Under the pieces are notes generated by a model, which did no database searches, was not told where the DNA came from, and saw nothing but the letters and a program-made list of their open reading frames with translations. From Desulfobacterales bacterium (GTDB taxonomy: Bacteria > Desulfobacterota > Desulfobacteria > Desulfobacterales > ETH-SRB1): a stretch of 64,000 nt of DNA. The translations under genes and the position numbers were made by a program. How positions within the stretch are numbered: position 1 is the stretch's first letter; every line of letters begins with the position of its first letter. Below are positions 4,490 to 62,700 of the stretch, one piece after another. The stretch spans positions 11,947 to 75,946 of the forward strand of contig JAUWQO010000001.1 in NCBI GenBank assembly GCA_030610995.1. Direction: 5' to 3'.

Positions 4490-4498
4490 AGGGATTCT

Positions 4499-27015: not shown

Positions 27016-27804
27016 TCTGAGTAAATTAAAATACCAGGATATCAGACTGGGTCCCCAAAAGATATAGGTGATGGCGCCTGTAGATAGAAACGGGCCAAAC
27101 GGCACGGCGATTTTCATCCCCTTTTTAGTACTCAGCATGATTGTGATTCCAACAAGAGTTCCGACAAGAGATGAAACAAAGATTGTAAAGAGTATACCTT
27201 TCCAGCCAACGATTGTTCCAATCATAGCCATGAGCTTTATGTCTCCGCCTCCCATGCCTTCGGCCTTTTTAATTAGATAATAGATCCATCCAACCAACAG
27301 GAGACTTCCGCCTCCGGCAAGCAGCCCCAGCAGAGATTCCTTGTATGTTATTGACGGGAGGGCAAAGGATGCCAGGAAGCAGACAGGTATGCCGGGAATA
27401 GTTATTAGATCAGGTATGATCTGATGATCAATATCGATAAAGGTTATTACGACCAGAGCTGTAATGAAAGCAAAGTAAACAAGCGCTTCGAGGGTAGGCC
27501 CAAACTTGAGAAATGTACAGAGCGCAAAAACGCCGCTTATAATTTCCACAAGCGGATAACGGAAAGATATTGGCTTATTGCAGTTGCGGCATCGTCCTTT
27601 AAGCCAGAGATAGCTTAAAACAGGAATATTGTCATAGAATCGTATTATACTGCCGCAATTTGGACAGATAGAACGAGGTGGATCAATGATTGATTTTGAA
27701 GCCGGAAGCCTGTATATACATACATTTACAAAGCTTCCTATACACATGCCGAATATGAAAATTATTGTTTGGACCAGGTGGCAAGAGAACATTTTGCTCC
27801 TCAA
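27013..27804 (-). CDS. pilD: prepilin peptidase (A24 family)
   Basis: 263 aa. N-terminal Cys-rich 'CPNCGS...CRNC', multiple transmembrane segments, 'GGGDIKLMA'. Confidence 0.9.
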   Translation of the reverse strand: MRSKMFSCHLVQTIIFIFGMCIGSFVNVCIYRLPASKSIIDPPRSICPNCGSIIRFYDNIPVLSYLWLKGRCRNCNKPISFRYPLVEIISGVFALCTFLKFGPTLEALVYFAFITALVVITFIDIDHQIIPDLITIPGIPVCFLASFALPSITYKESLLGLLAGGGSLLLVGWIYYLIKKAEGMGGGDIKLMAMIGTIVGWKGILFTIFVSSLVGTLVGITIMLSTKKGMKIAVPFGPFLSTGAITYIFWGPSLISWYFNLLR

Positions 27805-27820
27805 TCAAAATTTTAAATAT

Positions 27821-27988
27821 TATAACCTAAGTTGAGCGATTTATTGCGAAGATATGTGCCGAGATCTTGATGCATAAGGGTTTGCGAAAACCACAGGCAT
27901 ACCCGTGGATATGTCGAGGATTTTCGCGAATCCTTGATGCGCAAGAGATTGGTGCAGATCGAGTAAAAAATCGCTTAATTTAGGTATA
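27821..27988. repeat. MITE-like palindromic element ('TATAACCTAAGTTGAGCGATTT' termini)
   Basis: The left terminus faces 'aaatcgcttaatttaggtata'. Central hairpin 'ccacaggcatacccgtgg'. Confidence 0.85.
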
Positions 27989-28096
27989 AGTATGTTTCAT
28001 TGAAAAATCAATATTGATATTGTCAAAGATAAATTATGTTATATAATATAAGTTTGTAATTTCTTAATCAGCAATTCTAATTATGGCTTTTTTCTG

Positions 28097-28215
28097 TCGA
28101 TTTTAAAATAATTTGAAGAGCGGAGCGACATCATTATTCGACGTTGGACGTTGGACGTTGGACGTTGGACGTTGGACGTTCATTTTTTAATATGTTCGAT
28201 GTTCAAAATTAGAAT
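28097..28215. repeat. family D element, right-half copy, with 'gacgttg' x5 array (28140-28180)
   Basis: 'tcgattttaaaataatttgaagagcggagcgacatcattattcgacgttggacgtt...'. The same module occurs at 39845-39935 and, reverse-complemented, at 62701-62790. Confidence 0.9.
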
Positions 28216-28334
28216 CGCTGCTTCTCAAGAAAGTCCTGGTAAATGCTTTGATATACGAATTGTCTGGATTCTCGTAAATAACCCCGAGGTCTTTTGAGAC
28301 GGTTATGAAGGGGAATATATTATAAGGAGAAAAT

Positions 28335-30737
28335 ATGGCTAAATCTGACAGAGATGACCTTATCAGCATTATTGACGGAGATGGAAAGGATGCCGATATA
28401 CCTGCTACTCTACCTTTAATGCCTGTTCGGGATGTAGTGATTTTTAATGATATGCTGCTTCCTCTTTTTGTTGGACGTGAAAAGTCGGTGCGTGCTGTAG
28501 AAGAGGCTATGACAAAGGACAGTTTTTTAATGCTGGTTACCCAGAAAGATCCAAGTATTGAGGACCCAAAGCCCAATGAAATCTACAGTGTTGGAACCGT
28601 CAGCCGTGTCCTTCGCATGTTAAAGCTTCCTGACGGTAGTGTTAAAGCCCTTGTGCAGGGTATTTCCAAAGCTCGGATTGTAAGGTATATAAAAAAGAAG
28701 GATTTATATCTTGTAAAGATTGAAACTATTCCTGAAAACCCTATAAAAAAAATAAACCTTAAAATTGAGGCTATGATGAGGAATGTCAGGGACTATTCCA
28801 TGAAAATCCTGGCACTTCGCGGGGAATTAACAGGCGATGTGAGCAGTATTCTGGAAAGCATAGATGATCCCGGCAAGCTTGCCGACCTTGTTGCCTCGAA
28901 TTTAAAGCTGAAAATAAAGGAGTCGCAAACAGTACTGGAATATATCGATCCTGTAAAGCGTCTCAATAAAGTAAACGACCTGCTCTCCCGTGAAGTCGAG
29001 CTTTCATCCATCCAGGCCAAGATCCAGTCTGATGTCAGGGATGAAATTTCTAAAAATCAGCGAGACTATTTTTTAAGGGAGCAGATGAGAGCTATCCATA
29101 AGGAATTGGGTGACCAGGATGAAAGGAAACAGGAGATAACCGGGTACAACAAAAGGATCAAAAAAGCAAAGATGTCAAAGGAGGCGGCAAAAGAGGCGAA
29201 AAGGCAGCTAAAGCGACTGGAACAGATGCATCCTGACTCTGCGGAAGCTTCGGTAATACGAACCTACCTGGACTGGCTTGTTGATATGCCCTGGAGCATA
29301 ACGACCAAAGATGTAATCAATATAAAGAACGCAAAAAAGCTGCTTGACGAGGACCATTATGCTCTTGACAGGGTAAAGGATCGCGTGTTGGAATATTTGA
29401 GCGTTCGTAAGCTTAACCCTGAGAGCAAAGGCCCGATTATTTGTTTTGTCGGCCCCCCCGGCGTTGGAAAGACCTCGATGGGCCGTTCAATTGCCCGTGC
29501 CATGAAACGAAAATTTGTGCGTATTTCTTTGGGTGGCATACGTGATGAAGCAGAAATAAGAGGTCACCGTCGTACATATATAGGGGCTTTACCCGGACGC
29601 ATATTACAGGGTCTGAAACAGTGCGGCACAAAGAATCCTGTTTTTATGATGGACGAGATCGACAAGCTTGGAGCCGATTTTCGAGGCGATCCTTCCTCCG
29701 CCCTTTTAGAGGCCTTTGACCCCGAGCAGAATTTTTGTTTTAGCGACCACTATCTTAACCTGCCTTTTGATCTGTCAAAGGTTATGTTTGTACTTACAGC
29801 AAACTTGACAGATACTATTCCTTCAGCTCTTCTCGACAGGATGGAGATTATTTCACTTTCCGGATATATGGAAGAGGAAAAAAGGATCATTGCCGAAAAG
29901 TACCTTTTGCCGCGGCAGATAAAGGAAAACGGTTTAAAGCCCAAAACCATGAATATCAGCGCCGGGGCGTTGCAGCAATTAATTAGAGAATACACATCAG
30001 AGGCAGGCTTAAGAAACCTTGAACGGGAGATAGGAAACATCTGTCGAAAGGTGGCCCGCAAAATTGCCGAAGGGGGAAAAAGGCCTTTCAACATCACAAA
30101 AGGCAACCTGCAAAAATATATGGGTGTGCCAAAATATTTCCCTGAAATGGATCAGGAAAACAGCCAGGTTGGCTTGTCAACCGGCCTTGCCTGGACACAG
30201 GCCGGCGGTGAAGTCCTGTATGTGGAAGCCTCTTTGATTAGAGGCAAAGGTGATTTGATTATAACCGGACAGTTAGGTGATGTAATGCAGGAGTCTGCTC
30301 GTGCTGCCGTGACTTATGCCAGGGCAAATCTTAGTTCCTATAAAATAAAAGAAAACCTGTTTGAAAATCATGATGTGCATATCCATGTTCCGGCCGGCGC
30401 TATACCCAAAGATGGGCCGTCTGCCGGCATTGCAATGGCTACAGCCCTTATTTCTGCTTTGACTAATAAGCCGATTTGCAAAGATGTTGCCATGACGGGT
30501 GAAATTACCCTTCGAGGGAGGGTTCTTCCTGTAGGGGGTTTGAAGGAAAAATCTCTTGGAGCTTTAAGGGCAGGGATCCATACTATTATATTGCCTGAGA
30601 AGAACAAAAAGGATTTGACCGAGATTCCGGCGAATGTAAAGCGGAAGATAAGATTTGTTCCTGTAAGCAGCATGGATGAAGTCCTTAGTATATCCTTTGA
30701 AAAGCAAAATAAATCAAAGCAACCGGCAAATAAATGA
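28335..30737 (+). CDS. lon: ATP-dependent Lon protease
   Basis: 800 aa. LON N-terminal domain, Walker A 'GPPGVGKTS', protease 'DGPSAG'. Confidence 0.97.
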   Translation: MAKSDRDDLISIIDGDGKDADIPATLPLMPVRDVVIFNDMLLPLFVGREKSVRAVEEAMTKDSFLMLVTQKDPSIEDPKPNEIYSVGTVSRVLRMLKLPDGSVKALVQGISKARIVRYIKKKDLYLVKIETIPENPIKKINLKIEAMMRNVRDYSMKILALRGELTGDVSSILESIDDPGKLADLVASNLKLKIKESQTVLEYIDPVKRLNKVNDLLSREVELSSIQAKIQSDVRDEISKNQRDYFLREQMRAIHKELGDQDERKQEITGYNKRIKKAKMSKEAAKEAKRQLKRLEQMHPDSAEASVIRTYLDWLVDMPWSITTKDVINIKNAKKLLDEDHYALDRVKDRVLEYLSVRKLNPESKGPIICFVGPPGVGKTSMGRSIARAMKRKFVRISLGGIRDEAEIRGHRRTYIGALPGRILQGLKQCGTKNPVFMMDEIDKLGADFRGDPSSALLEAFDPEQNFCFSDHYLNLPFDLSKVMFVLTANLTDTIPSALLDRMEIISLSGYMEEEKRIIAEKYLLPRQIKENGLKPKTMNISAGALQQLIREYTSEAGLRNLEREIGNICRKVARKIAEGGKRPFNITKGNLQKYMGVPKYFPEMDQENSQVGLSTGLAWTQAGGEVLYVEASLIRGKGDLIITGQLGDVMQESARAAVTYARANLSSYKIKENLFENHDVHIHVPAGAIPKDGPSAGIAMATALISALTNKPICKDVAMTGEITLRGRVLPVGGLKEKSLGALRAGIHTIILPEKNKKDLTEIPANVKRKIRFVPVSSMDEVLSISFEKQNKSKQPANK

Positions 30738-34422: not shown

Positions 34423-34508
34423 CTTTTGGTGAACAGAAAGTTGCAATCAAACGTAAAGTAAGGTATCTTGATAAAAATTGTCAAAAAAGTTTCTTTGAAA
34501 GATTGTAA

Positions 34509-34711
34509 TAATTTAGCGCTTTGAAAATTTGGCTTTTTTCGTTGAGATATTGCTAATCCGAAAAAGCATTATTTGAATATCGAATATCGAACAAGGAATT
34601 TCGAATGATGAATTGTGGAATCGCTACGCTCTATCTTTTATAGTAGTAAAAATGATAGAATACCTTACTTCGACATTCATAATTCCTTGTTCGATATTCT
34701 GCGGTTCAAAA
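34509..34711. repeat. family E element, copy 2
   Basis: Same left 'taatttagcgcttt' and 'gaatatcgaatatcgaacaaggaatttcgaat'. The right arm is identical to copy 1. Confidence 0.9.
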
Positions 34712-34841
34712 TAAATCCGTAAGTTTGAATTCGTTTTAAAAAGCTAAAGTGTTACTATTTTTCTTGTTTATCCTGTCAGATTTTTTTTCAAAGGGCTAAA
34801 ATATTACAAAACTTTTTGGTTGTTGTTGCGGAGTATTTGAT

Positions 34842-36125
34842 ATGAAATACAAATTTTTCATAATCACCCTGTTGGCATTATTGCTGTTTTCTTTTGTAAA
34901 TGCTTTTGCAGGGGAAAATGAAATCTATATTATCAAGGCATCAGGCGCAGTAAGCCCTGCCCTAGCCGACTTTTTAAAACAGGGGATTAAGAAGGCGTCA
35001 GATAATGATGTTTCCTGCATTATCATTGAGCTTAATACCCCGGGAGGCCTGGCTGAATCTATGCGTGATATTGTAATGGCCATACTTGCAAGCAAGGTTC
35101 CTGTTGTGGTCTATGTCTCTCCCAGCGGGGCAAGGGCTGCCTCGGCAGGGGTTATGATTACTATGGCGGCAGATATTGCCGCAATGGCTCCGGGAACAAA
35201 TATCGGCGCTGCGCATCCGGTAGGAGCCGGAGGGAAAGAGATAGAAAAAGTCATGTCTGAAAAGGTAGTTAATGACATGGTGGCTCACGCCAGGAGTATT
35301 GCAGGCAAACGGGGGCGAAATGCAGAGTGGGTTGAAAAGGCCATTCGTGAAAATGTTTCTGTAACGGAAACCGAGGCCCTGAAAGAAAATGTCATCGATA
35401 TAGTGGCAACAGATATGGATGATCTGATCAGACAGATTAACGGCCGTGAAATTAAGGACAAGGAAGTGATTAACCTTGACAATCCCACAAGGACAATACT
35501 GGAAGAAACTATAAGAACAAAAATTTTAAAGATAATAAGCGATCCTAATATCGCATATATTCTTATGATGATAGGCATGGCCGGGATCTATTTTGAACTA
35601 TCGCATCCTGGCGCTATTTTCCCCGGAGTGGTCGGAGCCATTGCAATTGTATTGGCATTTTTTGCCTTTCAGACACTTCCCGTCAACTATGCAGGCATAC
35701 TCCTTATTATACTTGGGCTGATATTTTTTATTATGGAGATGATGATTGCAAGCTATGGCCTTCTCAGCATAGCAGGGATAACCTCACTTTTTTTAGGCTC
35801 CCTGATGTTGTTTGAAAATGTAAGTCCTGAACTAAGGGTAGCGTGGCATGTGCTTTTGCCAACAATTGTTATAGTCTCAGCTTTTTTTGTCACACTTGCG
35901 AGCCTGGTTTTTAAGGCGCAGGTATCAAAGCCTAAAACAGGCGCAAATGGCCTTGTCGGTGAAATCGGAGTTGTAAAAGAGAATATCATGCCGGAAGGCA
36001 AGGTCTTTGTGCATGGGGAGCTCTGGAATGCGACTTCAAAAAGCATGATAAACAAAGGAACAAAAGTAAGGGTGATAAAGGTGGTAAATCTTATGCTTGA
36101 TGTTGAGCCGGTCAATTTTAAATGA
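34842..36125 (+). CDS. NfeD-family membrane-bound serine protease
   Basis: 427 aa. Signal peptide, ClpP-like domain, transmembrane segments, C-terminal NfeD OB domain. Upstream of an SPFH gene. Confidence 0.85.
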   Translation: MKYKFFIITLLALLLFSFVNAFAGENEIYIIKASGAVSPALADFLKQGIKKASDNDVSCIIIELNTPGGLAESMRDIVMAILASKVPVVVYVSPSGARAASAGVMITMAADIAAMAPGTNIGAAHPVGAGGKEIEKVMSEKVVNDMVAHARSIAGKRGRNAEWVEKAIRENVSVTETEALKENVIDIVATDMDDLIRQINGREIKDKEVINLDNPTRTILEETIRTKILKIISDPNIAYILMMIGMAGIYFELSHPGAIFPGVVGAIAIVLAFFAFQTLPVNYAGILLIILGLIFFIMEMMIASYGLLSIAGITSLFLGSLMLFENVSPELRVAWHVLLPTIVIVSAFFVTLASLVFKAQVSKPKTGANGLVGEIGVVKENIMPEGKVFVHGELWNATSKSMINKGTKVRVIKVVNLMLDVEPVNFK

Positions 36126-36183
36126 CCAAGCATTCTTTGTGCCTTTGATAGCTTTGCATACCCCCCGTTTTTGCTCAATTTTG

Positions 36184-36264
36184 GTCATTGCGAGGAGCAA
36201 AGCGACGTGGCAATCTTGTGGATTATCAACATGTTTTGAGATTGCTTCGCTTCGCTCGCAATGA
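36184..36264. repeat. family B hairpin
   Basis: 'gtcattgcgaggagcaaagcgacgtggcaatct' faces 'gagattgcttcgcttcgctcgcaatgac'. Reverse orientation of 15543-15623. Confidence 0.9.
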
Positions 36265-36346
36265 CAATGCCGAGGTTTTTCAAAGGTCTTTTTTTGAGCC
36301 TTGGTGGCCGAACTATTACAAACTTATTTTAAAAAAGGAGAATAAA

Positions 36347-37102
36347 ATGTATACAGTAATTGCAGTTGTTATACTTGTAGCCCTTTTTCTGTCAGCAGCC
36401 ATACGAATATTAAATGAGTATGAACGCGCGGTTATATTCAGGCTTGGCAGGGTTATAAAGGCAAAAGGGCCCGGCCTGATCATACTTATTCCCATTGTAG
36501 ATAAAATGGTAAAGGTAAGTATGCGTCTTGTGGCCATGGATGTGGACCCGCAGGATGTTATAACCAGGGATAATGTTTCGGTAAAGGTTAATGCTGTAAT
36601 CTATTTCAGGGTCATCGATTCGATAAAGGCTATAGTTGAGGTTGAGCAATACAACTATGCTATGTCTCAACTCGCCCAGACAACCCTGAGAAGTGTGTGC
36701 GGCCAGGCAGAGTTAGATGAGCTTTTGTCTGCAAGGGAAAAGATTAATGAGCAGCTTCAAGTAATACTGGATACACATACAGATCCGTGGGGATTAAAGG
36801 TTGCAACCGTGGAACTGAAGCATATTGATTTGCCCCAGGAGATGCAACGCTCGATGGCCAAGCAGGCTGAGGCGGAAAGGGAACGTCGCGCCAAGGTAAT
36901 TAATGCAGAAGGGGAATTTCAGGCTGCGACAAAGCTGGCTGAAGCATCGAAAATAATTGAAAATCACCCTACGGCCTTGCAACTCAGGTATCTCCAGACA
37001 ATGCGCGAGATGTCGGCAGAGCAGAATACAACAACAATTTTTCCGTTTCCAATTGAACTTTTCAAGCCATTTATGAAACTTCTTGATAAAGAAGGCAAAT
37101 AA
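36347..37102 (+). CDS. SPFH/band-7 (stomatin-like) protein
   Basis: Start set to 'MYTVIAVV'. '[16 protein letters not shown]' and the SPFH domain. Paired with nfeD. Confidence 0.9.
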
Positions 37103-37110
37103 ATATGTTT

Positions 37111-37364
37111 ACCGTTCACGGGTTCAGAGGTTCAAGGTTCAAAGGTTCAGGATAAAGCTATTAGCCATTAGCTCTTAGCTGAAGGTGTTAACTGTTTGAT
37201 TTTTTAAGCTAACGCGCAGCGCAGGCGCTTGCGCCGCGTGAGGCTAATTGCTAAAAGCTAACTGCTAACAATCTTCGATTTAAAAATATTGGTGCATAGC
37301 AGTTGCCCGGCGCTCCAAGAAAAATAACCCTGAACCTCTGAACCGTGAACCTGTGAACGGTTAC
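37111..37364. repeat. family C variant ('accgttcacgg...ctgtgaacggt' termini; 'ggttca' and 'gctaa' word arms; GC palindrome core)
   Basis: Flanked by 'taaatatgttt' at 37100-37110 and at 37365-37375. Confidence 0.85.
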
Positions 37365-37496
37365 TAAATATGTTTAGCCTGTACAAGGCCATCAACTATT
37401 GACATAATAAAATAAAATAGTTAAAAGAACTATTTTTCTTGTCATGATTAACGGTTTTTCAAAACCATCAAGGATAGAAAAGGAGATTTGCTGGAT

Positions 37497-37826
37497 ATGG
37501 GCACTAAGAAAAAAAAGGAGATCAAGGAAAAACCTTTAGATAAAATGACTGCCAAGGAGCTAAGGGAGGTAGCCAAAGAGATCGCCGAAATTACCGGTGT
37601 TCATGGAATGAATAAGGCAGAGCTGATCAGTTCAATAAAAAAGGCAAGGGGGATCGAAGATACGCCGGGAAGAAAAACCAATGCATTGGTCCGCGATATC
37701 AAGTTGAAAATCAGAAAATTAAAGGTTGAGAAAGAAGCTTTTTTAAAGGCTGATAATAAAAAGATGGTAATTATTTCAAAGCGGCGCATTACCAGGCTGA
37801 AGAAAAAAACAAGAAAAGCAGCATAA
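37497..37826 (+). CDS. small Lys-rich protein with a Rho-N/SAP-like helix-hairpin
   Basis: 109 aa. 'MTAKELREVAKEIAEITGVHGMNKAELISSIKKARG'. AGGAG lies 11 nt upstream of the ATG. Confidence 0.55.
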   Translation: MGTKKKKEIKEKPLDKMTAKELREVAKEIAEITGVHGMNKAELISSIKKARGIEDTPGRKTNALVRDIKLKIRKLKVEKEAFLKADNKKMVIISKRRITRLKKKTRKAA

Positions 37827-38057
37827 TTTAGCTTTATTTGTAATAATTCAGCCACAAAGGCACTAAGATTATAATATAATTTTTAATATACAGTATATGC
37901 CGTATCTACAACTTTTTTCTTCTCTTTTTTGATAACGCTTTAAAATTAAAGTTTTTTTGTGCCTTTGTGACTTAGTGGCTGAACTCTTACCTTTATTTCA
38001 AAAAAATATTGTTTCACGCAAAGGCGCAAAGACGCTAAGTTTTAAAAAGTGATATTT

Positions 38058-38627
38058 ATGATCAATCCGTCCTCTATAGCTTTTGATGTTGATGGGGTTT
38101 TTGCCGATACCATGACATTGTTTCTTGATATAGCGCACAAGGAGTATGGCATAAATTGGATCAGGCCTGAAGATATTACCTGTTATTCTATTGAGGATTG
38201 CCTTGATATCGATAAAAACATTGTTCAAGACATATTAAACCGCATACTTGATGGCAGTTATGATATGACTTTAAAACCTATAGCCGGCGCTCCGGAAGTG
38301 TTGACGAAACTTGGGAAAAGCCAAAAACAGCTCCTCTTTGTAACAGCGCGACCTTATTTGGGACCCATTCACGATTGGATGTTAAGCATCCTGCCGCTTA
38401 AGCCTGATTCAATAGAGATTGTTACAACAGGCACATTTGAAGGCAAATCAGATGTTCTTTTGAGCAGAAATATAGCCTATTTTGTTGAAGACAGGCTCGA
38501 GACATGTTTTAGGCTTAAAGAAGCCGGCATAACTCCGGTTTTGTTCAAGCAGCCGTGGAACAGGGAGGCTCATCCATTTATGGAGATTGAAACCTGGGGC
38601 GATCTTGAAGAGCTAATTAAATTTTGA
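38058..38627 (+). CDS. HAD-superfamily hydrolase (5'(3')-deoxyribonucleotidase-like)
   Basis: HAD motif I 'AFDVDGVFAD'; 'VTAR'; 'VEDR'. Confidence 0.65.
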   Translation: MINPSSIAFDVDGVFADTMTLFLDIAHKEYGINWIRPEDITCYSIEDCLDIDKNIVQDILNRILDGSYDMTLKPIAGAPEVLTKLGKSQKQLLFVTARPYLGPIHDWMLSILPLKPDSIEIVTTGTFEGKSDVLLSRNIAYFVEDRLETCFRLKEAGITPVLFKQPWNREAHPFMEIETWGDLEELIKF

Positions 38628-39577
38628 TGATTTCATCTGCTTTCAAAAAGTTAATCGGATCTTTTATCGAATTTCTTTCCCTGGAAAAGGGGTATTCCAA
38701 AAACACCTCTCGCGCATATCTGCACGATCTTGAAGAGTTTGCATCCTTTCTCTCTCAAAACCGGTCTTTAATGGTGGGAAAGAGTAATTATGCAGGTTCA
38801 TATAAAGAAAATCAGGTCGGAGTGGATGAAGTAAGCCCATTGATAATAAGGGGTTATTTGGGATTTTTACACAAAAAGAACAAAAAGGTAACCATAGCAC
38901 GCAAGCTTTCCTCTTTGCGTTCCTTTTTCAGATATCTTGTGAAGCATGGTGTAATTACTGATAACCCGGCTGATTTGATTCTTTCGCCAAAACAAAGAAA
39001 GGCTATTCCTGCCTATCTGACGGTTGACGACACATTCATACTGCTGAATTCAATAAAGACAGACACCTTGGCCGGCCTGAGGAATTGCGCTATTTTTGAG
39101 TCCCTATATTCGAGCGGAATAAGAGTATCTGAGCTTGCGGGACTGAATTTGATTGACGTGGATTTTACGAGCTGTGTTATCCGTGTTTTTGGAAAAGGCA
39201 ACAAGGAAAGAATTGTGCCGATCGGTAAAAAAGCTCTTGATGCAATAAAGGCTTATAGAAAAAGGCTGCGCCTGGAAGCAGGCACGCAAGCTGATGAAAA
39301 CGGCCCGTTATTTCTAAACAAAAGCCATGGCCGTCTTACAGCAAGATCTATTGCCCGTATCCTTGACAAGGTTGCAAAAGAAAGCGGCCTCTTAATGCCT
39401 GTTTCACCACATGCTTTGCGTCACTCGTTTGCAACACACATGCTTGACGCGGGAGCGGATTTAAGGGTCGTGCAGGAACTCTTAGGGCATAAAAACCTTT
39501 CTACTACACAAAAATATACACATGTGAGCATAGACAGACTAATGGAAACCTATGACAAAGCCCATCCCAGACGATAA
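38624..39577 (+). CDS. xerC: tyrosine recombinase XerC/XerD
   Basis: 317 aa with the 'R..H..R..Y' catalytic set ('HALRHSFATH', 'LGHKNLSTTQKYTHV'). Upstream of hslVU. Confidence 0.88.
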   Translation: MMISSAFKKLIGSFIEFLSLEKGYSKNTSRAYLHDLEEFASFLSQNRSLMVGKSNYAGSYKENQVGVDEVSPLIIRGYLGFLHKKNKKVTIARKLSSLRSFFRYLVKHGVITDNPADLILSPKQRKAIPAYLTVDDTFILLNSIKTDTLAGLRNCAIFESLYSSGIRVSELAGLNLIDVDFTSCVIRVFGKGNKERIVPIGKKALDAIKAYRKRLRLEAGTQADENGPLFLNKSHGRLTARSIARILDKVAKESGLLMPVSPHALRHSFATHMLDAGADLRVVQELLGHKNLSTTQKYTHVSIDRLMETYDKAHPRR

Positions 39578-39675
39578 TAAATATTGATGAATTCGTAAAA
39601 ACTCGAATTCATCAGAGGTCAGAGGTCAGAGGTCAGGGGGCATAAGCGCTAAGTTGTTTTTGCTCAGGAGGGACT

Positions 39676-39943
39676 GAAAAAAAATGAACATCGAACATCG
39701 AACGTCCAACATCGAATGTTGAATGGGGAAAGATGAAGAAACAGAGGCATTAATTAAGATTTTCGTTACGAGTATCAAAACGGGTGAAAAGAAACCACGC
39801 CTTGGCGTGGTTGAATGTTCGGTATTGGGTGTTTGTTTTTTTATTCGATTTTTAAATAATTTGAAGAGCAAAGCGACATCATTATTCGACGTTCGACGTT
39901 CGACGTTCGACGTTCGACGTTCGATGTTGGACGTTCGTTTTTC
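39676..39943. repeat. family D element, full copy, with 'cgacgtt' x5 array (39887-39921)
   Basis: Termini 'gaacatcgaacatcgaacgtccaacatcgaa' and 'ttcgatgttggacgttc'. Shares internal modules with 62701-62908 in reverse orientation. Confidence 0.9.
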
Positions 39944-39965
39944 AAAATTCTAAAAAAGGTATAAT

Positions 39966-40496
39966 ATGAAATTTCATGGAACGACCATCCTTGCTGTAAG
40001 GCATAAGGATAAACTGGCGGTTGCCGGTGACGGCCAGGTAACTTTGAATAATAATATTATAAAACATCATGCCAAAAAGGTAAGAAAGATTTATAATGAC
40101 AAAATTATTGTGGGATTTGCAGGAGCAACTGCTGATGCTTTAAATCTTTCTGAACGTTTGGAAGCAAAACTTGAACGTTACAACGGAAACCTGACCCGCA
40201 GCGCTGTTGAGTTGGCAAAAGACTGGCGAACCGACAAGTATTTAAGACATCTTGAGGCAATCATGATTGCCTCAGATGAAGACAGAATGTTTCTTATCTC
40301 AGGCAAAGGTGATGTAATTGAACCTGATGAAGGAATTATGGGCATTGGGTCCGGAGGAGTCAGCGCCCAGGCAGTGGCAATAGCGCTAATAAGACATACA
40401 GATATGGATGCCAGAGCTATTGTGGAAGAAGCCATGAGAATAGCCGGTTCAATTTGTGTATTTACAAACGATTCAATAACTATAGAAGAATTATAG
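39966..40496 (+). CDS. hslV: ATP-dependent protease subunit HslV
   Basis: 'HGTTILAVRH' places the N-terminal Thr after processing. 176 aa. Confidence 0.96.
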   Translation: MKFHGTTILAVRHKDKLAVAGDGQVTLNNNIIKHHAKKVRKIYNDKIIVGFAGATADALNLSERLEAKLERYNGNLTRSAVELAKDWRTDKYLRHLEAIMIASDEDRMFLISGKGDVIEPDEGIMGIGSGGVSAQAVAIALIRHTDMDARAIVEEAMRIAGSICVFTNDSITIEEL

Positions 40497-40658
40497 TGAT
40501 TGAGGATTAGGGGATTAAGGGATTTAGGAATTAAAATCAATAGGATACCTTCAATTCCTGAATTCCTGAATTCCTGAATTTAAGAGGATGGATAAAACAA
40601 ATAATTATTTTAACCCGCAACTAGTAAATTATAACTATAACTAAAAAAGAATGGAAAT

Positions 40659-42032
40659 ATGAGTGAGTTAAAACCATCAGAAATTGTTAAAGAGCTTGAT
40701 AAATATATTATCGGCCAGCACAAAGCAAAGCGTTCAGTAGCTGTTGCTTTAAGAAATAGATGGCGAAGGCAGCAGGTCCCGGAGGATCTTCGCGATGAAA
40801 TTGCGCCCAAAAATATTATACTCATAGGCCCCACAGGGGTGGGAAAGACAGAGATAGCAAGGAGGCTTTCCAGGCTTACCGATTCACCTTTCACAAAGGT
40901 TGAGGCCTCCAAGTTCACCGAGGTCGGCTATGTTGGCAGAGATGTTGAATCTATGGTAAGGGATCTTTTGGAGCTTACTGTAAATGTAATAAAATCAAGA
41001 GAGCAGGAGGCTGTGAAGGAAAAGGCGCGGCAGATTGCCGAAGAAAGGATGCTTGACCTTCTTCTTCCAAAACCAAAAGTGCGGCAAAAGGGAGAGATCG
41101 AAGCTGCAAAAGAAACCCCAATTGATTTAATAGCGCACAATGATGCTGAATCATCCTCAACAAGGGAAAAGCTTCGCAGAATGCTTCGAGAAGGAAAACT
41201 CGATAACCGGTATGTTGACCTTGATGTTTCAGATCGGGCCATGCCGGTTATAGAGGTTTTTTCCAGCATGGGGATGGAGGAGATGGGCATTAATTTTAAA
41301 GATATGTTGAGCGGAATTATGCCCAAAAGCTCAAAAAGAAGGAAGGTAAAGGTGCCGGAAGCTTTGATGATGCTGACACAAGAGGAGGCGCAGAACCTTG
41401 TTGATATGGACAAGGTAGTAAACCAAGCGATTGAAAAGGTTGAACAGTCAGGAATAATTTTCCTCGACGAAATAGATAAAGTTGTCGGCAAACACGGTGG
41501 ACACGGCCCCGATGTTTCGAGAGAAGGGGTGCAAAGGGATCTTCTTCCGATAGTGGAAGGTTGCAGCGTTTCAACCAGGCATGGGCCGGTGAAAACAGAT
41601 CATATACTTTTTATTGCTTCGGGCGCCTTTCATACAGTTAAACCTTCTGATTTGATTCCTGAGCTTCAGGGCAGGTTCCCGATCCGGGTAGAGCTTGATT
41701 CTCTTGGAAAAGACGAGTTTATCCGAATACTGACCGAACCGAAAAACGCATTGCTCCTTCAATACCTGGCCCTTTTAAGGACAGAAGGTGTTGATGTGGT
41801 CTTTGAGAATGATGCGGTGGCGAAAATTGCGGCAATTGCGGAAGAGGTTAACAACCTGACTGAAAATATCGGAGCAAGGAGACTCCATACTCTTATGGAA
41901 TATCTGCTTGAAGATATACTCTTTGATGCTCCTGACATGAAAGAAAAAAGGATTGTAATTGACGGAAAGTATGTTGATGATAAATTAAAGGATATCAAAG
42001 AAGACGAGGATCTTAGCAGGTATATCCTTTAA
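40659..42032 (+). CDS. hslU: ATP-dependent protease ATPase subunit HslU
   Basis: '[15 protein letters not shown]', Walker A '[14 protein letters not shown]'. 457 aa. Confidence 0.97.
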
Positions 42033-42112
42033 CAGAACAATTTTGAATTTTTAGTTCTTAATTTTAAATTAATCCGCCAGAGCGCTTTGGCGGACATAAT
42101 CCAAAATTGGAG

Positions 42113-42388
42113 TGTAGCAACGTAAGTTCTCAATAAGCTCTGGTACCAAACGTCATTCCCGTGAAAACGGGAATCCAGGCCCTAATAATTATAACACCGG
42201 ACTCAATGCCATTAACTTAAAGAGTAGATGTCGCTGTGGGAGCGGCTTTTAGCCGCGATTGTAGCTTTGGAGCGCACATTTTTTCGTGGCTGAAAGCCAG
42301 CCCCACAAACAAAATTAGCTTAAGTTAATGGCATTGACACCGGACTTTCAAACTCACCAGAACCTATTGAGAAGTTACGTAGCGACTC
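42113..42388. repeat. three-layer nested palindromic element
   Basis: Outer arms 'gtagcaacgtaagttctcaataagctctggt' and 'accagaacctattgagaagttacgtagcgac'. Middle arms 'acaccggactcaatgccattaacttaa' and 'cttaagttaatggcattgacaccggac'. Inner arms 'ctgtgggagcggcttttagccgc' and 'gtggctgaaagccagccccacaaa'. Confidence 0.9.
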
Positions 42389-42402
42389 ATTAAGGTAAAA
42401 TT

Positions 42403-43296
42403 ATGACTCCAAATGTTGCGGACATACTCATTGAAGCCCTTCCCTATATACGTCGTTTTTACGGCATGACCATCGTAATTAAATACGGCGGGCATGCCAT
42501 GGTTGACGAGCAGTTAAAGGCCGATTTTGCCCGGGACATCACCCTGTTGAAATTTATTGGTCTCAATCCTGTTGTTGTGCATGGCGGCGGCCCGCAGATC
42601 AACTCGGTCCTTGACCGGATGGGGATACACCCAAAGTTTGTCAGGGGAATGCGTCTTACTGATGAGCAAACTATGGATGTTGTGGAGATGGTGCTTGGTG
42701 GCAAGGTAAACAAGGCGATTGTTGCCGGAATTAATCAACACGGGGGAAAGGCGGTTGGCTTAAGCGGTAAGGATGGGGGGCTTATCTCAGCGAAAAAACT
42801 CCATATCAAATATCAGGAGGAGGCTGATAAGCCGCCTGAGATAATCGATCCTGGTCTGGTGGGACAGGTGACGCATATCAACCCTGATATCATCAACACG
42901 CTGACCAAACAGGATTTTATTCCAATTGTTGCTCCGGTCGGGGTTGGGGATGCCGGTGAGACATTCAACATCAATGCGGATCATGTGGCAGGCAAGATAG
43001 CCGTGGCGCTGAAAGCCGGACGTCTTATTTATCTTACAGATGTTGATGGAGTGCTTGACACCTCGGGCTTAGCAATATCTTCAATCAATGCTGAAAAGAT
43101 AAATAACATGATTCAAGATAAAACCGTTTCCGAGGGGATGATTCCAAAGCTTGAATGCGCCTTAGATGCGCTGAAAAACGGAGTTGAAAAGGTTCACATT
43201 ATTAATGGATGCAAACGTCATTCAGTATTGTTGGAGCTTTTTACCCATAAGGGGATCGGAACTGAAGTTACGTTAGCGCCCTTGGGGCGGGCTTAA
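42403..43296 (+). CDS. argB: acetylglutamate kinase
   Basis: 297 aa. '[10 protein letters not shown]', '[10 protein letters not shown]'. Confidence 0.96.
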
Positions 43297-43298
43297 AA

Positions 43299-43432
43299 GA
43301 TGAACGTCGAACATCGAACATTCAACGTCGAATTTTGAATAAGGAATTCTACCAATTTATAAACTGGCGGAGCACTTCGGTACCTCAGCATAAACTCAGC
43401 GATTTCATCATTCATCATTCGATGTTCAAAAG
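43299..43432. repeat. family D-related element
   Basis: 'gatgaacgtcgaacatcgaacattcaacgtcgaat' faces 'cattcatcattcgatgttc'. The left end is nearly identical to 62701-62735. Confidence 0.8.
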
Positions 43433-43506
43433 AATTTTTACTCTGCCGCTCCCATTTGGCAACCTATTGATAAAATTGATCAAAAAATGGGATTTTATAT
43501 CAACTT

Positions 43507-44691
43507 ATGAATAAAATAATAAATAAAGCCGAGAAGGTTATAGCAAAAACATATAACAGGTTCCCGATTGTAATTACAAAGGGCAAAGGATGCACTGTCT
43601 GGGACAGCAAAGGCCGGGCTTATACCGATTTTGTTGCGGGAATTGCCGTTTGCAACCTTGGCCATGCGCATCCAGGAGTGTCAAAAGCTCTGTCAGATCA
43701 GGCAAATACCCTTTTTCATGTGTCGAACCTTTATTATACGGTTCCACAGGTAGAGCTTGCGGCATGGCTTGTCGAAAACAGTTTTGCAGACAGGGTTTTT
43801 TTCTGCAACAGCGGCGCTGAAGCAAACGAGGCCGCAATAAAATTAGTTAGGAAGTATTTCAATGATAAAGGGGACCTGCGCCGCAACAGGATAATTGCCA
43901 TGGAGCAATCCTTTCACGGCCGCACCATGGCCACCCTTTCTGCTACAGGTCAGGACAAGATCAAGCAGGGTTTTGACCCATTGCTCGAAAGTTTTGACTT
44001 TGTGCCTTTTAACGATATTGATGCGCTAAAAAATAAAATCAAGCCCTTTACATGCGCAGTTATTATAGAGCCTGTCCAGGGTGAAGGAGGGGTCCGCTGC
44101 CCTGATGCCGAATACCTTAAAGATGTGAGACAGCTTTGTGATGAAACAGGGACTTTGCTGATTTTTGATGAAATACAGACAGGAATAGGCCGAACCGGAA
44201 AACTTTTTGCTTATGAGCATTTCGGGATTGAGCCGGATATTATGACATTGGCCAAAGCGCTTGCCAATGGGTTGCCCATAGGCGCCATGCTGGCTAAAGA
44301 GCATATTGCCGCGGCATTCGGGCCGGGTTCGCATGCATCGACATTTGGAGGCACGCCGGTTATTACCGCGGCTTCACTCGAAGTTGTCAGGACTCTTGTT
44401 AGAGAAAGGGTTATAGACCATTGCTTGCAGATCGGGGCCTATTTTAAGGAAAGACTTTTGTGGCTGAAAGACAGGCATGATTCCATTACGGATGTTCGCG
44501 GGATCGGTTTGCTGCTGGGAATAAAGCTTAAAACAGACGGTGAGCCTGTCGTGAAAAAATGCATGGAAAAAGGGTTCCTGATAAACTGCATTCAGGGTAA
44601 TATTTTACGATTTATTCCTCCCCTTATCATAGAAAAGGAGGAGATAGACTCCCTGATAATATGTCTGGATGAAATATTTTTAAGAGGTTGA
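43507..44691 (+). CDS. argD: acetylornithine aminotransferase
   Basis: 394 aa, class-III aminotransferase. 'FCNSGAEANEAA', 'DEIQTGIGRTG', 'LAKAL'. Confidence 0.94.
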   Translation: MNKIINKAEKVIAKTYNRFPIVITKGKGCTVWDSKGRAYTDFVAGIAVCNLGHAHPGVSKALSDQANTLFHVSNLYYTVPQVELAAWLVENSFADRVFFCNSGAEANEAAIKLVRKYFNDKGDLRRNRIIAMEQSFHGRTMATLSATGQDKIKQGFDPLLESFDFVPFNDIDALKNKIKPFTCAVIIEPVQGEGGVRCPDAEYLKDVRQLCDETGTLLIFDEIQTGIGRTGKLFAYEHFGIEPDIMTLAKALANGLPIGAMLAKEHIAAAFGPGSHASTFGGTPVITAASLEVVRTLVRERVIDHCLQIGAYFKERLLWLKDRHDSITDVRGIGLLLGIKLKTDGEPVVKKCMEKGFLINCIQGNILRFIPPLIIEKEEIDSLIICLDEIFLRG

Positions 44692-45665: not shown

Positions 45666-45832
45666 GAACTTATAAAATCCCAAATTTCAAGCATCAAATT
45701 ACAAATAAATCCCAAATTTCAATATTCAATGACCAAAACATATACGGGTTTGGGATTTTGAATTTTGGTTATTGTAATTTATTTGATATTTGTGATTTGT
45801 TGTTTGTTATTTCAGGAAAGGAAATTCCTATA
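45666..45832. repeat. family H element (forward orientation)
   Basis: 'gaacttataaaatcccaaatttcaagcatcaaattacaaataaatcccaaa...gggtttgggattttgaattttggttattgtaatttatttg...aaattcctatac'. Nested inside the outer inverted repeat at about 45627 and 45851. Confidence 0.9.
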
Positions 45833-45946
45833 CAATTGTTAAATTAATTTACTCTGTGTACTCTGTGCTCTCAGTGGTAATTTTTTTTACAACCGCAGAT
45901 GGTTTGTTGTGTAAAACTAAAGCATTATAAAGGATAGCTGCATATC

Positions 45947-49289: not shown

Positions 49290-49314
49290 TTAGACCATAA
49301 GGCCACCACGTAAC

Positions 49315-49941
49315 CCATAAGGCCGCCACGTAGGACGGCCCTACCGATAATGTGACCTTCAAATGGAAAAATACCATGCCGCGTATACCTGAACGATGGG
49401 ACGGGCTGAACCAAACCTATTTTGTGACTGTGGTAACGAGGAAACGAAAGCCGGTTTTTACAGATGATGCCCTTTGTCTTGAATTGCAAAATGCTTTCAA
49501 AGATGTCCATAAATTTCATCCGTTTCGGCTGGCGGCATTGGCGATATTGCCGGATCATTGGCATGCCTTGCTCCGACCGTATCCGGACATTATAATCGAA
49601 AACGTGGTTGGCGCTGTAAAAGCCAATCTAATGAAACGGATATGGAAAAAAGAAAAACGCAAGACCATCTGGCAAGCGAGATTTATAGACCATCGAATAA
49701 GGGATGAAGACGATTTTGCGAACCACGTGGAATATATCCGGATGAATCCCCATAAACATGGCCTTGCGCAAGAAAGCCAAAAATACAAATGGTTATTCAT
49801 CCACAACAATCCGTTTAAATAACGGTAGGGCCGTAAACCATAAGGCCGCCACGTAGGACGGCCCTACCAATAATGTAACCTTCAAATGGGAAAATACCAC
49901 AATCCGTTTAAATAATGGTAGGGCCGTCCTACGTGGCGGCT
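49315..49941 (+). mobile_element. RAYT element: transposase gene embedded in a REP doublet, with an adjacent transposase-less REP doublet (REPIN-like)
   Basis: REP 'ggccgccacgtaggacggccctacc' at about 49321 and about 49844, and its reverse complement at 49917-49941. 62-nt direct repeats at 49315-49376 and 49838-49899. Confidence 0.85.
49376..49822 (+). CDS. REP-associated tyrosine transposase (IS200/IS605 Y1 family)
   Basis: HUH motif 'LPDHWHALL', catalytic Tyr region 'HVEYIRMNPHKHGL', 'YFVTVVTRKRKPVF'. Start set to 'MPRIPERW'. Confidence 0.88.
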   Translation: MPRIPERWDGLNQTYFVTVVTRKRKPVFTDDALCLELQNAFKDVHKFHPFRLAALAILPDHWHALLRPYPDIIIENVVGAVKANLMKRIWKKEKRKTIWQARFIDHRIRDEDDFANHVEYIRMNPHKHGLAQESQKYKWLFIHNNPFK

Positions 49942-49952
49942 GGAAAATATTT

Positions 49953-51212
49953 ATGCATCATTTTAATTATCATAACAATGAAATGTATTGCGAAGATGTT
50001 CCGATACAGATAATTGCTCAAAAGGTCGGCACCCCTTTTTATTTATACAGCCATGCTACCTTAAAACGCCATTTCTCTGCCTTTAATGATGCCTTTGACG
50101 GCATGGAAAGGCTGATATGTTTCTCTGCAAAGGCAAATACAAATTTAGCTGTGTTGAAACTGTTCGCAAACCTTGGAGGCGGCCTTGATATTGTTTCACG
50201 AGGAGAACTTTTCCGGGGATTAAAGGCCGGGATTTCGCCTGACAAAATTGTTTATTCAGGTGTTGGAAAGCAGGTCGATGAGATCGACTACGCCCTTTAT
50301 AAAAATATATTGATGTTCAATGTCGAGTCCTTTGAGGAGCTTGAACTTATAAACCAGAGAGCTGGCTGGTATAAATTAAAAGCGCCTGTAGCTATTAGGG
50401 TAAATCCCGACGTTGATCCTAAAACCCATCCGTATATTTCAACCGGCCTTAAAAAAAATAAATTTGGTGTGGATTACAAGACGGCAATTAAAGCATACAA
50501 AATTGCAAACAGTCTAAAAAACATAAAAATAATCGGCATTGACTGCCATATCGGATCGCAGATTACCGAAACAGGGCCATTTGAGGATGCTCTCAAGAGC
50601 ATCAAGATGCTGATATATGAATTAAAAGATCTCGGCATAGAGATCAGATATGTTGACATGGGTGGAGGGCTGGGAATAACCTATCACGATGAATCACCTC
50701 CTCAGCCAAGTGAATATGCCGGATCCATAATTAAGCTGCTTAAAGGAATGCAGATTAAACTGATACTGGAACCAGGCAGGGTTATTGTCGGAAATGCTGG
50801 AATACTGGTTACCAAGGTTCTTTATAAAAAATCGGATGATGCAAAAGAGTTTGTTATAGTTGATGCAGGCATGAACGATCTGATACGTCCGGCATTGTAT
50901 AGAGCTTTTCATAATATAGAGCCGGTTGTTAAATCTGAAGGCAAATCGATAATTGCAGACATCGTAGGGCCAATTTGCGAAACAGGTGATTTTCTGGCTC
51001 TTGACCGTAAAATTGCCGACGTCAAAAACGGGGATTTTCTTGCGGTCATGAGCGCTGGAGCATACGGATTTACTATGTCATCAAATTACTGTTCCAGGCT
51101 GCGTGTACCCGAAGTAATGGTAAAGGATGACCTGTTTTATGTTGTAAGGGCACGGCAGGAATACGCAGATCTTATTGCAGGCGAGTCGATACCGCCGTTT
51201 TTGGAAAATTAA
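49953..51212 (+). CDS. lysA: diaminopimelate decarboxylase
   Basis: 419 aa. 'FSAKAN' PLP lysine context, 'GGGLGI', 'EPGR', 'CETGD'. Confidence 0.96.
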   Translation: MHHFNYHNNEMYCEDVPIQIIAQKVGTPFYLYSHATLKRHFSAFNDAFDGMERLICFSAKANTNLAVLKLFANLGGGLDIVSRGELFRGLKAGISPDKIVYSGVGKQVDEIDYALYKNILMFNVESFEELELINQRAGWYKLKAPVAIRVNPDVDPKTHPYISTGLKKNKFGVDYKTAIKAYKIANSLKNIKIIGIDCHIGSQITETGPFEDALKSIKMLIYELKDLGIEIRYVDMGGGLGITYHDESPPQPSEYAGSIIKLLKGMQIKLILEPGRVIVGNAGILVTKVLYKKSDDAKEFVIVDAGMNDLIRPALYRAFHNIEPVVKSEGKSIIADIVGPICETGDFLALDRKIADVKNGDFLAVMSAGAYGFTMSSNYCSRLRVPEVMVKDDLFYVVRARQEYADLIAGESIPPFLEN

Positions 51213-51329
51213 TCGTAACCATTCAGCCACAGATTCACCCCAGTACGATCATCCTGACCTACGGGGCAGGCACAGATGAACGCAGATAGCTTTAAATATA
51301 AAGAACCCACAAAACATTAATAATTATAT

Positions 51330-51443
51330 GTAGCCGTTCACGGCTTGAAACTTGAAATTGGAAAGTAGAAATTGGGAAGAACAGTATAAAAGCATGAAGC
51401 CCAAATTTCCAATTTCTAATTTCAATGTTCCGTAAACGGTTAC
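51330..51443. repeat. family C element, copy 3 (shorter)
   Basis: 'gtagccgttcacggcttgaaacttgaaattggaaagtagaaattgggaagaacagtataaaagcatgaag...ccgtaaacggttac'. Nested in the outer inverted repeat 'aaccattcagccacagat'/'atctgtggctgaatagtt'. Confidence 0.9.
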
Positions 51444-51496
51444 AAAATATCAGTGATGATCAGCGTATATCTGTGGCTGAATAGTTACAATTAATT

Positions 51497-55879: not shown

Positions 55880-55941
55880 TCCATTCTAAATTTTCAAGAG
55901 CTATTGCCAAAAATCTTGATCTTGAAAACCTCTATATCGCG
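55880..55941 (+). repeat. 62-nt duplicate of codons ~9-29 of the EndoQ-UvrD gene (left copy)
   Basis: 'tccattctaaattttcaagagc..gccaaaaatcttga.cttgaaaacctctatat.gcg' differs from 57917-57978 at 6 positions, mostly synonymous in the gene frame. Confidence 0.9.
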
Positions 55942-62699: not shown

Positions 62700-62700
62700 A

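Follow-up and report, generated by a model that had tools for sequence, protein, structure and literature searches.

Concentric palindromes between hslU and argB of a Desulfobacterales-like bacterium: probable nested insertions of small mobile elements

How does the spacer between two housekeeping genes come to hold palindromes within palindromes? The question is raised by the 370-nt spacer between hslU (40659-42032) and argB (42403-43296) in a 64-kb stretch of DNA (contig JAUWQO010000001.1, positions 11,947 to 75,946; hereafter the window, in whose coordinates all positions are given) that has a G+C content of about 42% and an ordinary housekeeping gene content. A preliminary description of this DNA had seen an onion of nested inverted repeats at 42113-42388, and had held that such onions fill nearly every spacer, are built of interchangeable modules, and belong to a system for which neither a description nor an enzyme was known. 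Here, we argue that the onion, like its counterparts in about half of the spacers, very likely arose as small non-autonomous mobile elements inserted, time after time, into intergenic DNA and into one another; it is not a single designed structure.

The concentric palindromes themselves are readily confirmed. Inverted repeats join 42095-42144 to 42356-42405 (50 nt, 72%) and 42197-42220 to 42320-42343 (24 nt, 92%), the innermost pair is 42235-42256/42286-42307, and a separate hairpin, GTCATTCCCG..CGGGAATC, is found at 42152-42175. The 311-nt onion stretch has a predicted folding energy of -122.9 kcal/mol on the plus strand and -128.6 kcal/mol on the minus strand, as against -69 and -76 kcal/mol, respectively, for its shuffles (z = -10.9 and -11.1); the entire spacer reaches z = -15.0, and coding controls average -0.39 (sd 0.95). 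The same spacer is carried at 99.9% identity by L001, an independent metagenome contig from the European Nucleotide Archive (ENA) that matches window positions 34498-43731 at 99.92%, and the onion is therefore not an assembly artefact.

Such strong predicted folding (z = -11 to -15), in a location between co-directional genes, might suggest a selected cis-acting RNA of the hslVU-arg transcript, serving as terminator, attenuator, processing site, or stabiliser. We consider this highly improbable, because both strands fold equally well, which is expected of DNA palindromes, because relatives with the same gene order lack the structure, and because its modules recur beside unrelated genes. Neither was there an Rfam match (at the gathering threshold, the whole window yields only its two tRNAs) or a terminator- or promoter-like excess in a scan of 41900-43600. 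The elements are probably transcribed, since they sit between co-directional genes, and could affect processing; secondary exaptation of the onion as an RNA element may also have occurred.

Insertion, rather than design, is seen when the spacer is compared with those of relatives. Contigs gathered via ArgB homologues, mostly 1-7 kb long, form a graded series of DNA identity to the window: 94% (L082), 90% (L085), 89% (L084), and 87% (L086). The hslU-argB spacer is 370 nt in the window versus 84 nt in L084, 56 nt in L085, and 77 nt in L086, and the three short spacers align to both ends of the long one. Where the window has a duplicated octamer, GTAGCAAC (42114-42121) and GTAGCGAC (42379-42386), each of the three has a single GCAGCGAT. 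At the insertion site, the relatives read ..AAAATTAGAG CGCAGCGAT TTATTATG.., and the window reads ..GGAGT GTAGCAAC [ GTAAGTTCTCAATAAGCTCTGGT ... ACCAGAACCTATTGAGAAGTTAC ] GTAGCGAC TCATT... No remnants of terminal inverted repeats (TIRs), which would be a sign of precise deletion, are visible by alignment in the spacers of L084-L086. The preliminary description had proposed this comparison of orthologous spacers, and whole units are indeed present or absent (370 nt vs 56-84 nt).

Between the two octamers lies the outer layer, 257 nt on the plus strand (42122-42378), with 23-nt TIRs at 42122-42144 (GTAAGTTCTCAATAAGCTCTGGT) and 42356-42378. Having TIRs at both ends, a target-site duplication (TSD) of fixed length, many dispersed copies, and empty sites, it is a miniature inverted-repeat transposable element (MITE). 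In L082, the same spacer is occupied by another element, GTAACCGTTCACGG...CCGTGAACGGTTAC, which is a copy of the GTARCCGTTYACGG MITE family considered below. Just 3' of hslU, a 22-nt hairpin, TCCGCCAGAGCGCTTTGGCGGA (42073-42094), replaces the ACATT of relatives, as judged from its inverted repeat and the L086 alignment.

The second layer (42194-42346) has 17-nt TIRs, CAATGCCATTAACTTAA, at 42204-42220 and 42320-42336, and is flanked by a 10-bp direct repeat, ACACCGGACT, at 42194-42203 and 42337-42346. The metagenome contig L282 carries a member of the same MITE subfamily in which this site is intact, reading ..ATAATTATGGCACCGTACTTTCAAAATCACCAGAAC unbroken, where the window reads ..ATAATTATAACACCGGACT [ CAATGCCATTAACTTAA ... 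TTAAGTTAATGGCATTG ] ACACCGGACT TTCAAACTCACCAGAAC. Because the L282 site is uninterrupted and that of the window is duplicated, the second layer is a later insertion into the resident MITE, with a 10-bp duplication. The innermost layer (42235-42307) is an inverted doublet of two hairpins of about 24 nt, TGTGGGAGCGGCTTTTAGCCGCGA and TCGTGGCTGAAAGCCAGCCCCACA, without an evident target duplication; it resembles the hairpin doublets (REPINs) formed by repetitive extragenic palindromic (REP) sequences. An NTS/Ssn-related-motif (SRM) hairpin, CGTCATTCCCGTGAAAACGGGAATCCAG, is found at 42151-42178 on the plus strand and fits the published SRM pattern.

Dispersal of the outer-layer family becomes visible in metagenomes. 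With the outer TIR, written GTAASTTCTCAATARGYTCTGGT, as query, at least 120 stretches were found in JGI metagenome contigs; the contigs carrying it have a G+C content of 43%, and for some of them there is synteny with the window, at an identity of about 74%. Among the matches listed, a canonical 72-nt form accounts for 36 of 84 occurrences, the rest being 84-278 nt long. The 8-bp TSD is perfect in 16, and has at most one mismatch in 33, of the 45 complete non-redundant copies among these matches, and the duplicated sites are 70% A+T. What the copies enclose varies: nothing, an NTS doublet, or a TCCGCC hairpin plus NTS. The copy in L217 (155 nt) has TIR-ACCAAA-NTS exactly as in the window, followed by a second, inverted NTS; that in L282 (189 nt) holds NTS parts and a TCCGCC..GGCGGA hairpin, TCCGCCAAAGCACTCTGGCGGA, which is near-identical to the hairpin lying outside the MITE in the window (42073-42094). 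The empty sites, the TSDs, and the outer-element copies with other cargo or none uphold the earlier proposal of mobile, interchangeable units inserted into each other.

How far does this extend along the window? Less far than 'nearly every spacer', or the 'more than 25 spacers' first counted: about half of the spacers are affected. By folding, z falls below -3 in 18 of 38 spacer segments, and below -5 in 9. By symmetry, 19 of 39 spacers contain an ungapped inverted repeat that no shuffle equalled, and gapped repeats are found in a few more (e.g., 36126-36345 and 20067-20194). Within the 64 kb, three of the four layers of the hslU-argB spacer are single-copy, their dispersal being visible only in metagenomes. 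The five quoted modules do recur in the window above chance: GTCATTGCGAG has 7 matches (0.9 expected), TAATTAGT.CCTGAACGAAAAC has 4 (0 expected), GTAGCCGTTCACGGC has 3 (0.04 expected), and CGCAGCGCAGGCGCTTGCGCCGCG and GTCATTCCCG..CGGGAATC have 2 each (0 and 0.03 expected, respectively).

Conserved operons are invaded, as had been claimed. The spacers on either side of rpsM measure 354 nt (rpsM-rpsK) and 438 nt (map-rpsM), and spacers from nfeD to dapF, the block containing the arg and lys genes, add up to about 3.4 kb in the window versus about 0.9 kb in L086, with gene order being equal. Within this block, the xerC-hslV spacer is 388 nt in the window versus 6 nt in L086, the argF-argG spacer 339 nt versus 18 nt, and the argB-argD spacer 210 nt versus an overlap of the two genes; an insertion between band7 and rhoN has TAAATAT(GTTTA) duplicated. 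The tested modules were found neither in 65 kb of the 87-90% relatives nor in 1.3 Mb of other hslU loci; the element burden is thus restricted to a narrow clade comprising the window and L082. Since the patterns differ at 94% DNA identity, the burst is probably recent.

At least eight dispersed families are present in the window. The GTARCCGTTYACGG MITE family, which combines ends of 14 nt with inverted heptamer arrays in the interior, is found at 16110-16267, 21133-21290, 51330-51443, and 37107-37364 (14-nt TIR pairs at 16110/16267, 21133/21290, and 51330/51443), with further copies in L001 and L082. A perfect 8-bp TSD, CAATTATT, flanks the 16110-16267 copy, and TAATTATT/TAATTATC flanks an L001 copy. 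In the lysA-dapF spacer, an outer inverted repeat, AATTAATCGTAACCATTCAGCCACAGAT/ATCTGTGGCTGAATAGTTACAATTAATT, surrounds the 51330-51443 MITE (51207-51496; z = -9.2). The GTAAYNATTCAGCCACA ends of that structure are shared with 37840-37990; we considered these two as a nested/un-nested pair and rejected the idea, as a MAFFT alignment showed shared ends and unrelated interiors. A second composite, at 26855-27015 (z = -8.0), has the outer inverted repeat TAATTAGT.CCTGAACGAAGAC...GTTTTCGTTCAG around a doublet at 26892-26977, and TAATTAGT.CCTGAACGAAAAC arms at 23107-23205 enclose a core unlike that of the composite. Elements of the TATACCTCGRAAGG type are found at 13343-13503 and 15750-15911. The xerC-hslV spacer holds an element with inverted (GAACRTC)n heptamer arrays (39679-39943), with relatives at 62697-62904, 43295-43420, 34568-34711, and 28088-28188.

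Tandem arrays of 7-8 nt units are numerous (AATATTC x11, TTCGACG x7.6, GACGTTG x5.9, and others), and arrays beside the GTARCCGTTYACGG ends seem to stem from the sequence of the ends themselves, e.g., GGTTCAR repeats. One might therefore ask whether the palindromes are non-mobile arrays and hairpins that grew in place, through slippage during replication or through template switching. This is very doubtful in view of the target duplications, the sharp insertion borders, and the existence of near-identical copies both at distant loci and in further metagenomes; the effect of slippage is probably confined to array length.

Several further observations concern these elements. The rpsM-rpsK (2033-2386) and map-rpsM (1211-1648) spacers contain TAGTCGAG octamer arrays in inverted orientation, and the former shares a 101-nt segment (2190-2290), at 93% identity, with the argF-argG spacer (45736-45836). 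The right end of the 21133-21290 MITE (21277-21290) covers the recJ stop codon (low-coordinate end of the open reading frame [ORF], 21287), and an NTS hairpin at 25403-25430 lies within the last codons of a miaB-like ORF ending at 25438; both insertions may have remodelled the C-termini. A near-perfect hairpin of about 165 nt (~27827-27990) is 92% identical in L233 (8527-8699) and L268 (3471-3641), with unrelated flanks and with coding DNA of the clade being about 74% identical. An Rfam search of 27700-28400 at E <= 1 gave no match, and this hairpin is either another mobile family or a conserved small RNA.

Which enzymes might be responsible? Insertions, target duplications, empty sites, dispersal of the outer family, and differing MITE cargo are matters of observation, and they fall into at least two mechanistic classes, target-duplicating and non-duplicating, rather than one 'modular system'. 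The first comprises classical MITEs, with TIRs and with TSDs of fixed length: A+T-rich and of 8 bp in the case of the outer layer and the GTARCCGTTYACGG family, and of 10 bp in that of the second layer. DDE transposases encoded elsewhere presumably act on them in trans. The second comprises hairpins and doublets that make no duplication, namely, the NTS/SRM hairpins, the innermost REPIN-like doublet, and a CGTCATTGCGAG doublet, all resembling elements handled as single-stranded DNA (ssDNA) by HUH enzymes, such as REP-associated tyrosine transposases (RAYTs), or by GIY-YIG enzymes, such as Ssn. As insertions would be tolerated in spacers and in the interiors of resident elements, layers would pile up, and since each unit is palindromic, the stack would fold as concentric stems in either strand. 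The enzymes proposed for each class are candidates chosen on sequence features.

For the first class, IS66-family transposases are the putative movers, to which the 8-bp duplications and the GTAA-starting ends point. The hallmarks of IS66 are inverted repeats of 20-30 bp starting with GTAAGCG and 8-bp direct repeats (PMC11946415). The ends of the GTARCCGTTYACGG family start with GTAGCCG, GTAACCG, or GTAAGCG (the last in one copy; the 16110 copy starts GTAAGCGTTCACGG). Both this family and the outer layer are ordinary MITEs with TIRs, 8-bp TSDs, and GTAA-type ends resembling the IS66 signature, and not the undescribed kind of element that they had first been taken for.

Certain results weigh against the account of nested insertions given here, and we gather them together. 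The outer-layer TIR starts with GTAAGTT/GTAACTT and not with GTAAGCG. The window contains no IS66 gene, and in 80 metagenome loci, no autonomous insertion sequence (IS) with matching ends was found, only solo ends beside housekeeping-like ORFs. Some copies, such as that at 51330-51443, lack a clean duplication. In the sequences examined, there is but one copy each of the second layer and of the innermost doublet, and their status as families follows from the duplication and the intact L282 site only. Lastly, no GIY-YIG or ssn gene was found in the window or in the loci of close relatives by motif scan or by phmmer with an approximate Escherichia coli YhbQ sequence as query.

The presence of a RAYT should immediately raise the possibility that the spacers are a REP system, of the bacterial interspersed mosaic element (BIME) type, spread by that enzyme. 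The window encodes a bona fide RAYT between the lptM-like gene and lysA (49376-49822, plus strand; NCBIfam NF047646, 122.9 bits, cut-off 80) with 24-nt REPs, GCCGCCACGTAGGACGGCCCTACC, at 49322-49345 (+), 49845-49868 (+), and 49917-49940 (-), the first and last being 100% complementary. REPIN-like doublets lacking target duplications are, moreover, present in the form of the innermost layer and the CGTCATTGCGAG elements. Nevertheless, we judge this explanation improbable. The REP occurs in three copies, all of them beside the gene; it was not found in other window spacers or in L001 and L082, and it matches no module. The RAYT locus (49290-49952 in the window) has an equivalent, gene and REP included, at the corresponding position of a relative of about 88% identity (L089/L090; L089 3100-3760; also L091), yet the spacers of L089/L090 are compact and module-free. 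The gene is absent from the 87% relative L086 and from the 70-73% relatives L002 and L003. Y1 HUH transposases (IS200/IS605, RAYT) do not make 8-bp or 10-bp target duplications, such as those seen here. We accordingly rejected the RAYT as mover of the onion: it does not account for a structure whose modules its REP does not match, and it is found in a compact-spacer relative as well.

The GTCAT-type modules deserve separate consideration. The GTCATTCCCG..GGGAATC module, for which no description or enzyme had been known to the preliminary description, is the NTS/SRM motif, which was published in 2025 along with its cognate protein, Ssn, a single-strand GIY-YIG nuclease of about 94 aa that cuts near NTS and modulates transformation (PMC11893778). 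The SRM pattern, HGTCWYN(0-2)YYVSBRHN(0-5)WNVSBRGN(0-2)RNCYNB, has three matches in the window versus 0.16 expected: the onion hairpin, a second, CGTCACTCCGGTGAAAACCGGAGTCCAG, at 19873-19900 on the minus strand, and a third at 25403-25430 on the minus strand, the one overlapping the miaB-like ORF. The hairpins at 42151-42178 and 25403-25430 agree almost exactly with the NTS consensus of Neisseria, CGTCATTCCCGCGMAVGCGGGAATCYRG, one of them within one base. As ssDNA, all three form 8-bp hairpins, with z between -4.2 (that at 42151-42178) and -5.8.

The module GTCATTGCGAG proved to be the end of an 82-86-nt inverted doublet with the consensus GTCATTGCGAG-x-CGAAGCAATCCAG..CTGGATTGCTTCG-x-CTCGCAATGAC. 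One copy, CGTCATTGCGAG...CTCGCAATGAC (82 nt, 15543-15624), lies inside an outer inverted repeat at about 15514-15660, and further CGTCATTGCGAG doublets are found at 26892-26977 and 36184-36265. The doublet is widespread, with at least 120 stretches in IMG/VR and up to three per contig; 90 copies among the matches listed have no flanking direct repeat above chance and prefer C at -1 and G at +1. We found no name for the doublet in Rfam or in the searchable literature, where a search by module strings gave no bacterial paper for GTCATTGCGAG. Read-through ORFs over the CGTCATTGCGAG...CTCGCAATGACG doublet give the recurrent peptides ..CHCEE.. and ..IASLRSQ.

Could an Ssn system, rather than DDE transposases, drive the accumulation, with one or more Ssn-family GIY-YIG nucleases acting on the NTS/SRM hairpins and perhaps also on the CGTCATTGCGAG doublets? 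The three pattern matches, their stability as ssDNA, and the near-perfect consensus fit speak for it, as do the NTS units and NTS doublets that recur as outer-MITE cargo and the doublets that, like NTS, start with CGTCATT and carry AATCCAG. We think it unlikely all the same. The window has no GIY-YIG ORF, nor was one found close to doublets (those paired in L125 flank phage genes, not a nuclease), and in 2.57 Mb of loci, the one GIY-YIG match (L036) has no NTS-type hairpin beside it. The doublet arms are not matched by the SRM pattern, and single arms fold like shuffles (z = -0.02 to +1.1); on these two grounds, we rejected the arms as SRM hairpins and did not class the doublet as SRM. The published work shows cleavage near NTS and hypothesises mobility only (PMC11893778), and the layers with target duplications would be left unexplained.

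A bolder version builds on the CGTCATT and AATCCAG shared by NTS and doublet: the NTS/SRM hairpins and the cosmopolitan CGTCATTGCGAG...CTCGCAATGACG doublet might form one superfamily handled as ssDNA, spread by Ssn-type GIY-YIG nucleases, preferring MITE interiors, and moved between phyla. A Neisseria-type NTS in a Desulfobacterales-like genome and doublets in many viral contigs are the cross-phylum cue; even so, we offer this superfamily as a speculation that is probably wrong.

To return to the nested insertions, how do they compare with known systems? Like IS66-derived and classical MITEs, the elements are non-coding, 72-278 nt long, dispersed, and matched by empty sites, with TIRs of 14-23 nt from GTAA and A+T-rich 8-bp TSDs. 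They differ in the main-family ends (GTAAGTT/GTAACTT vs GTAAGCG), in that no autonomous IS with these ends was found in the window or the 80 metagenome loci, and in that copies carry other mini-elements and one family carries inverted heptamer arrays. With Neisseria NTS/dRS3 and the Neisseria intergenic mosaic elements (NIMEs), they share SRM-fitting hairpins (42151, 25403, and 19873), an intergenic location, and a mosaic with other repeats. NIMEs were reportedly described by Parkhill and colleagues in 2000 as RS units flanked by dRS3; here, however, the host is Desulfobacterales-like, only three such hairpins occur in 64 kb with no ssn seen in the window, and the units lie inside TIR-type MITEs instead of flanking RS units.

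As in the REP/BIME/REPIN-RAYT systems of gamma-proteobacteria, there are intergenic palindromes, hairpin doublets, and a RAYT flanked by REPs, and REPIN clusters are known to form when a REPIN inserts within or beside an existing one (PMC3116915). In contrast to these systems, the REP of the RAYT is not among the modules, and most layers make target duplications. The extra spacer DNA amounts to about 14% of the syntenic block, whereas E. coli REPs make up about 1% or less of the genome. Small intergenic repeats that are nested, or are tandem heptamers, and also enter ribosomal-protein operons have parallels in cyanobacterial short tandemly repeated repetitive (STRR) sequences and in Beggiatoaceae. 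Elhai and colleagues are said to have reported, in 2008, cyanobacterial small dispersed repeats nested in each other and in MITEs. The TAACTGA repeats of Beggiatoaceae are abundant intergenic tandem heptamers, also found inside ribosomal-protein operons (PMC4679880). Among the 7-8 nt arrays of the window, we found neither TAACTGA nor the STRR units considered here; the heptamers and the phylum are different, and the arrays here are inverted pairs inside elements with defined ends and TSDs. The kinds of element are mostly known; what is unusual is their density, how many families reside together in this clade, and the fact that NTS and the CGTCATTGCGAG doublet reach across phyla.

The host is an uncultured Desulfobacterales-like bacterium, because, among species-representative genomes, the nearest HslU sequences (80% and 79%) come from metagenome-assembled genomes (MAGs) labelled Desulfobacterales or 'delta proteobacterium', and the order nfeD-band7-rhoN-nt5c-xerC-hslV-hslU-argBD(F)GH-lptM-like-lysA-dapF is common to the window and those MAGs. 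An origin in Beggiatoaceae or cyanobacteria, to which the heptamer arrays had at first seemed to point, was rejected on these grounds. Besides secY-map-rpsM-rpsK-rpsD-rpoA-rplQ (41-5035), the window includes typA, recJ, a miaB-like gene, lon, clpB, nfeD-band7, an xerC-like gene, hslV, argD, argF, argG, argH, lysA, and dapF.

Some features elsewhere in the window should be recorded. An ORF with PAS, HisKA, and HATPase_c domains (7707-9320) overlaps, in a different frame, an ORF with the end of HATPase_c and a receiver domain (9293-9832), which looks as if a frameshift had split a single hybrid histidine kinase. Next to it, 6687-7706 is 1 kb without a long ORF that contains gene fragments: an SbcD/Mre11-like N-terminus (7111-7293, MFRFLHAADIHLDSP..) and a receiver-domain C-terminal fragment (7484-7633). 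Three metagenome loci (L213, L264, and L268) resemble part of it (6707-6863) at 77-78% similarity; Rfam gave no match at E <= 1 for 6600-7800. A 62-nt direct repeat (92%) is present at 55880-55941, upstream of an NTP_transf_8 gene, and at 57917-57978, inside the 5' part of a UvrD-like ORF (57886-61302). A 42-nt tandem repeat (20339-20431; 2.2 copies, 94%) lies inside a minus-strand ORF without family matches (20109-20558).

L001 and the window, although 99.9% identical, differ in gene order at the edge of a GTAA-type repeat, TTGTAATAATTTAGCGC... The break is at window position 34498 (spacer 34423-34841) and L001 position 3841, and upstream of nfeD, one finds coaBC-UDG in L001 and L086 and clpB in the window. 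Because the break falls at a repeat edge and the first 60 nt past it are only 92% identical, recombination between two repeat copies is suggested. Repeats of this sort mark strain-level rearrangement breakpoints, and they break metagenome assemblies, the contigs of relatives being mostly 1-7 kb long.

For this lineage, the finding means that a lineage-specific burst has added about 14% to a conserved gene block and has split ribosomal-protein and arginine operons. It offers a clean natural example of 'Russian-doll' palindromes, with empty, differently filled, and nested states across relatives of 87-94% identity. The NTS/SRM motif of 2025 is extended to a distant phylum, as MITE cargo, and a very widespread doublet of about 80 nt, nameless in Rfam and in the searchable literature, is flagged. 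If the two do belong together, the Ssn-hairpin superfamily would be a second partnership of the REPIN-RAYT kind.

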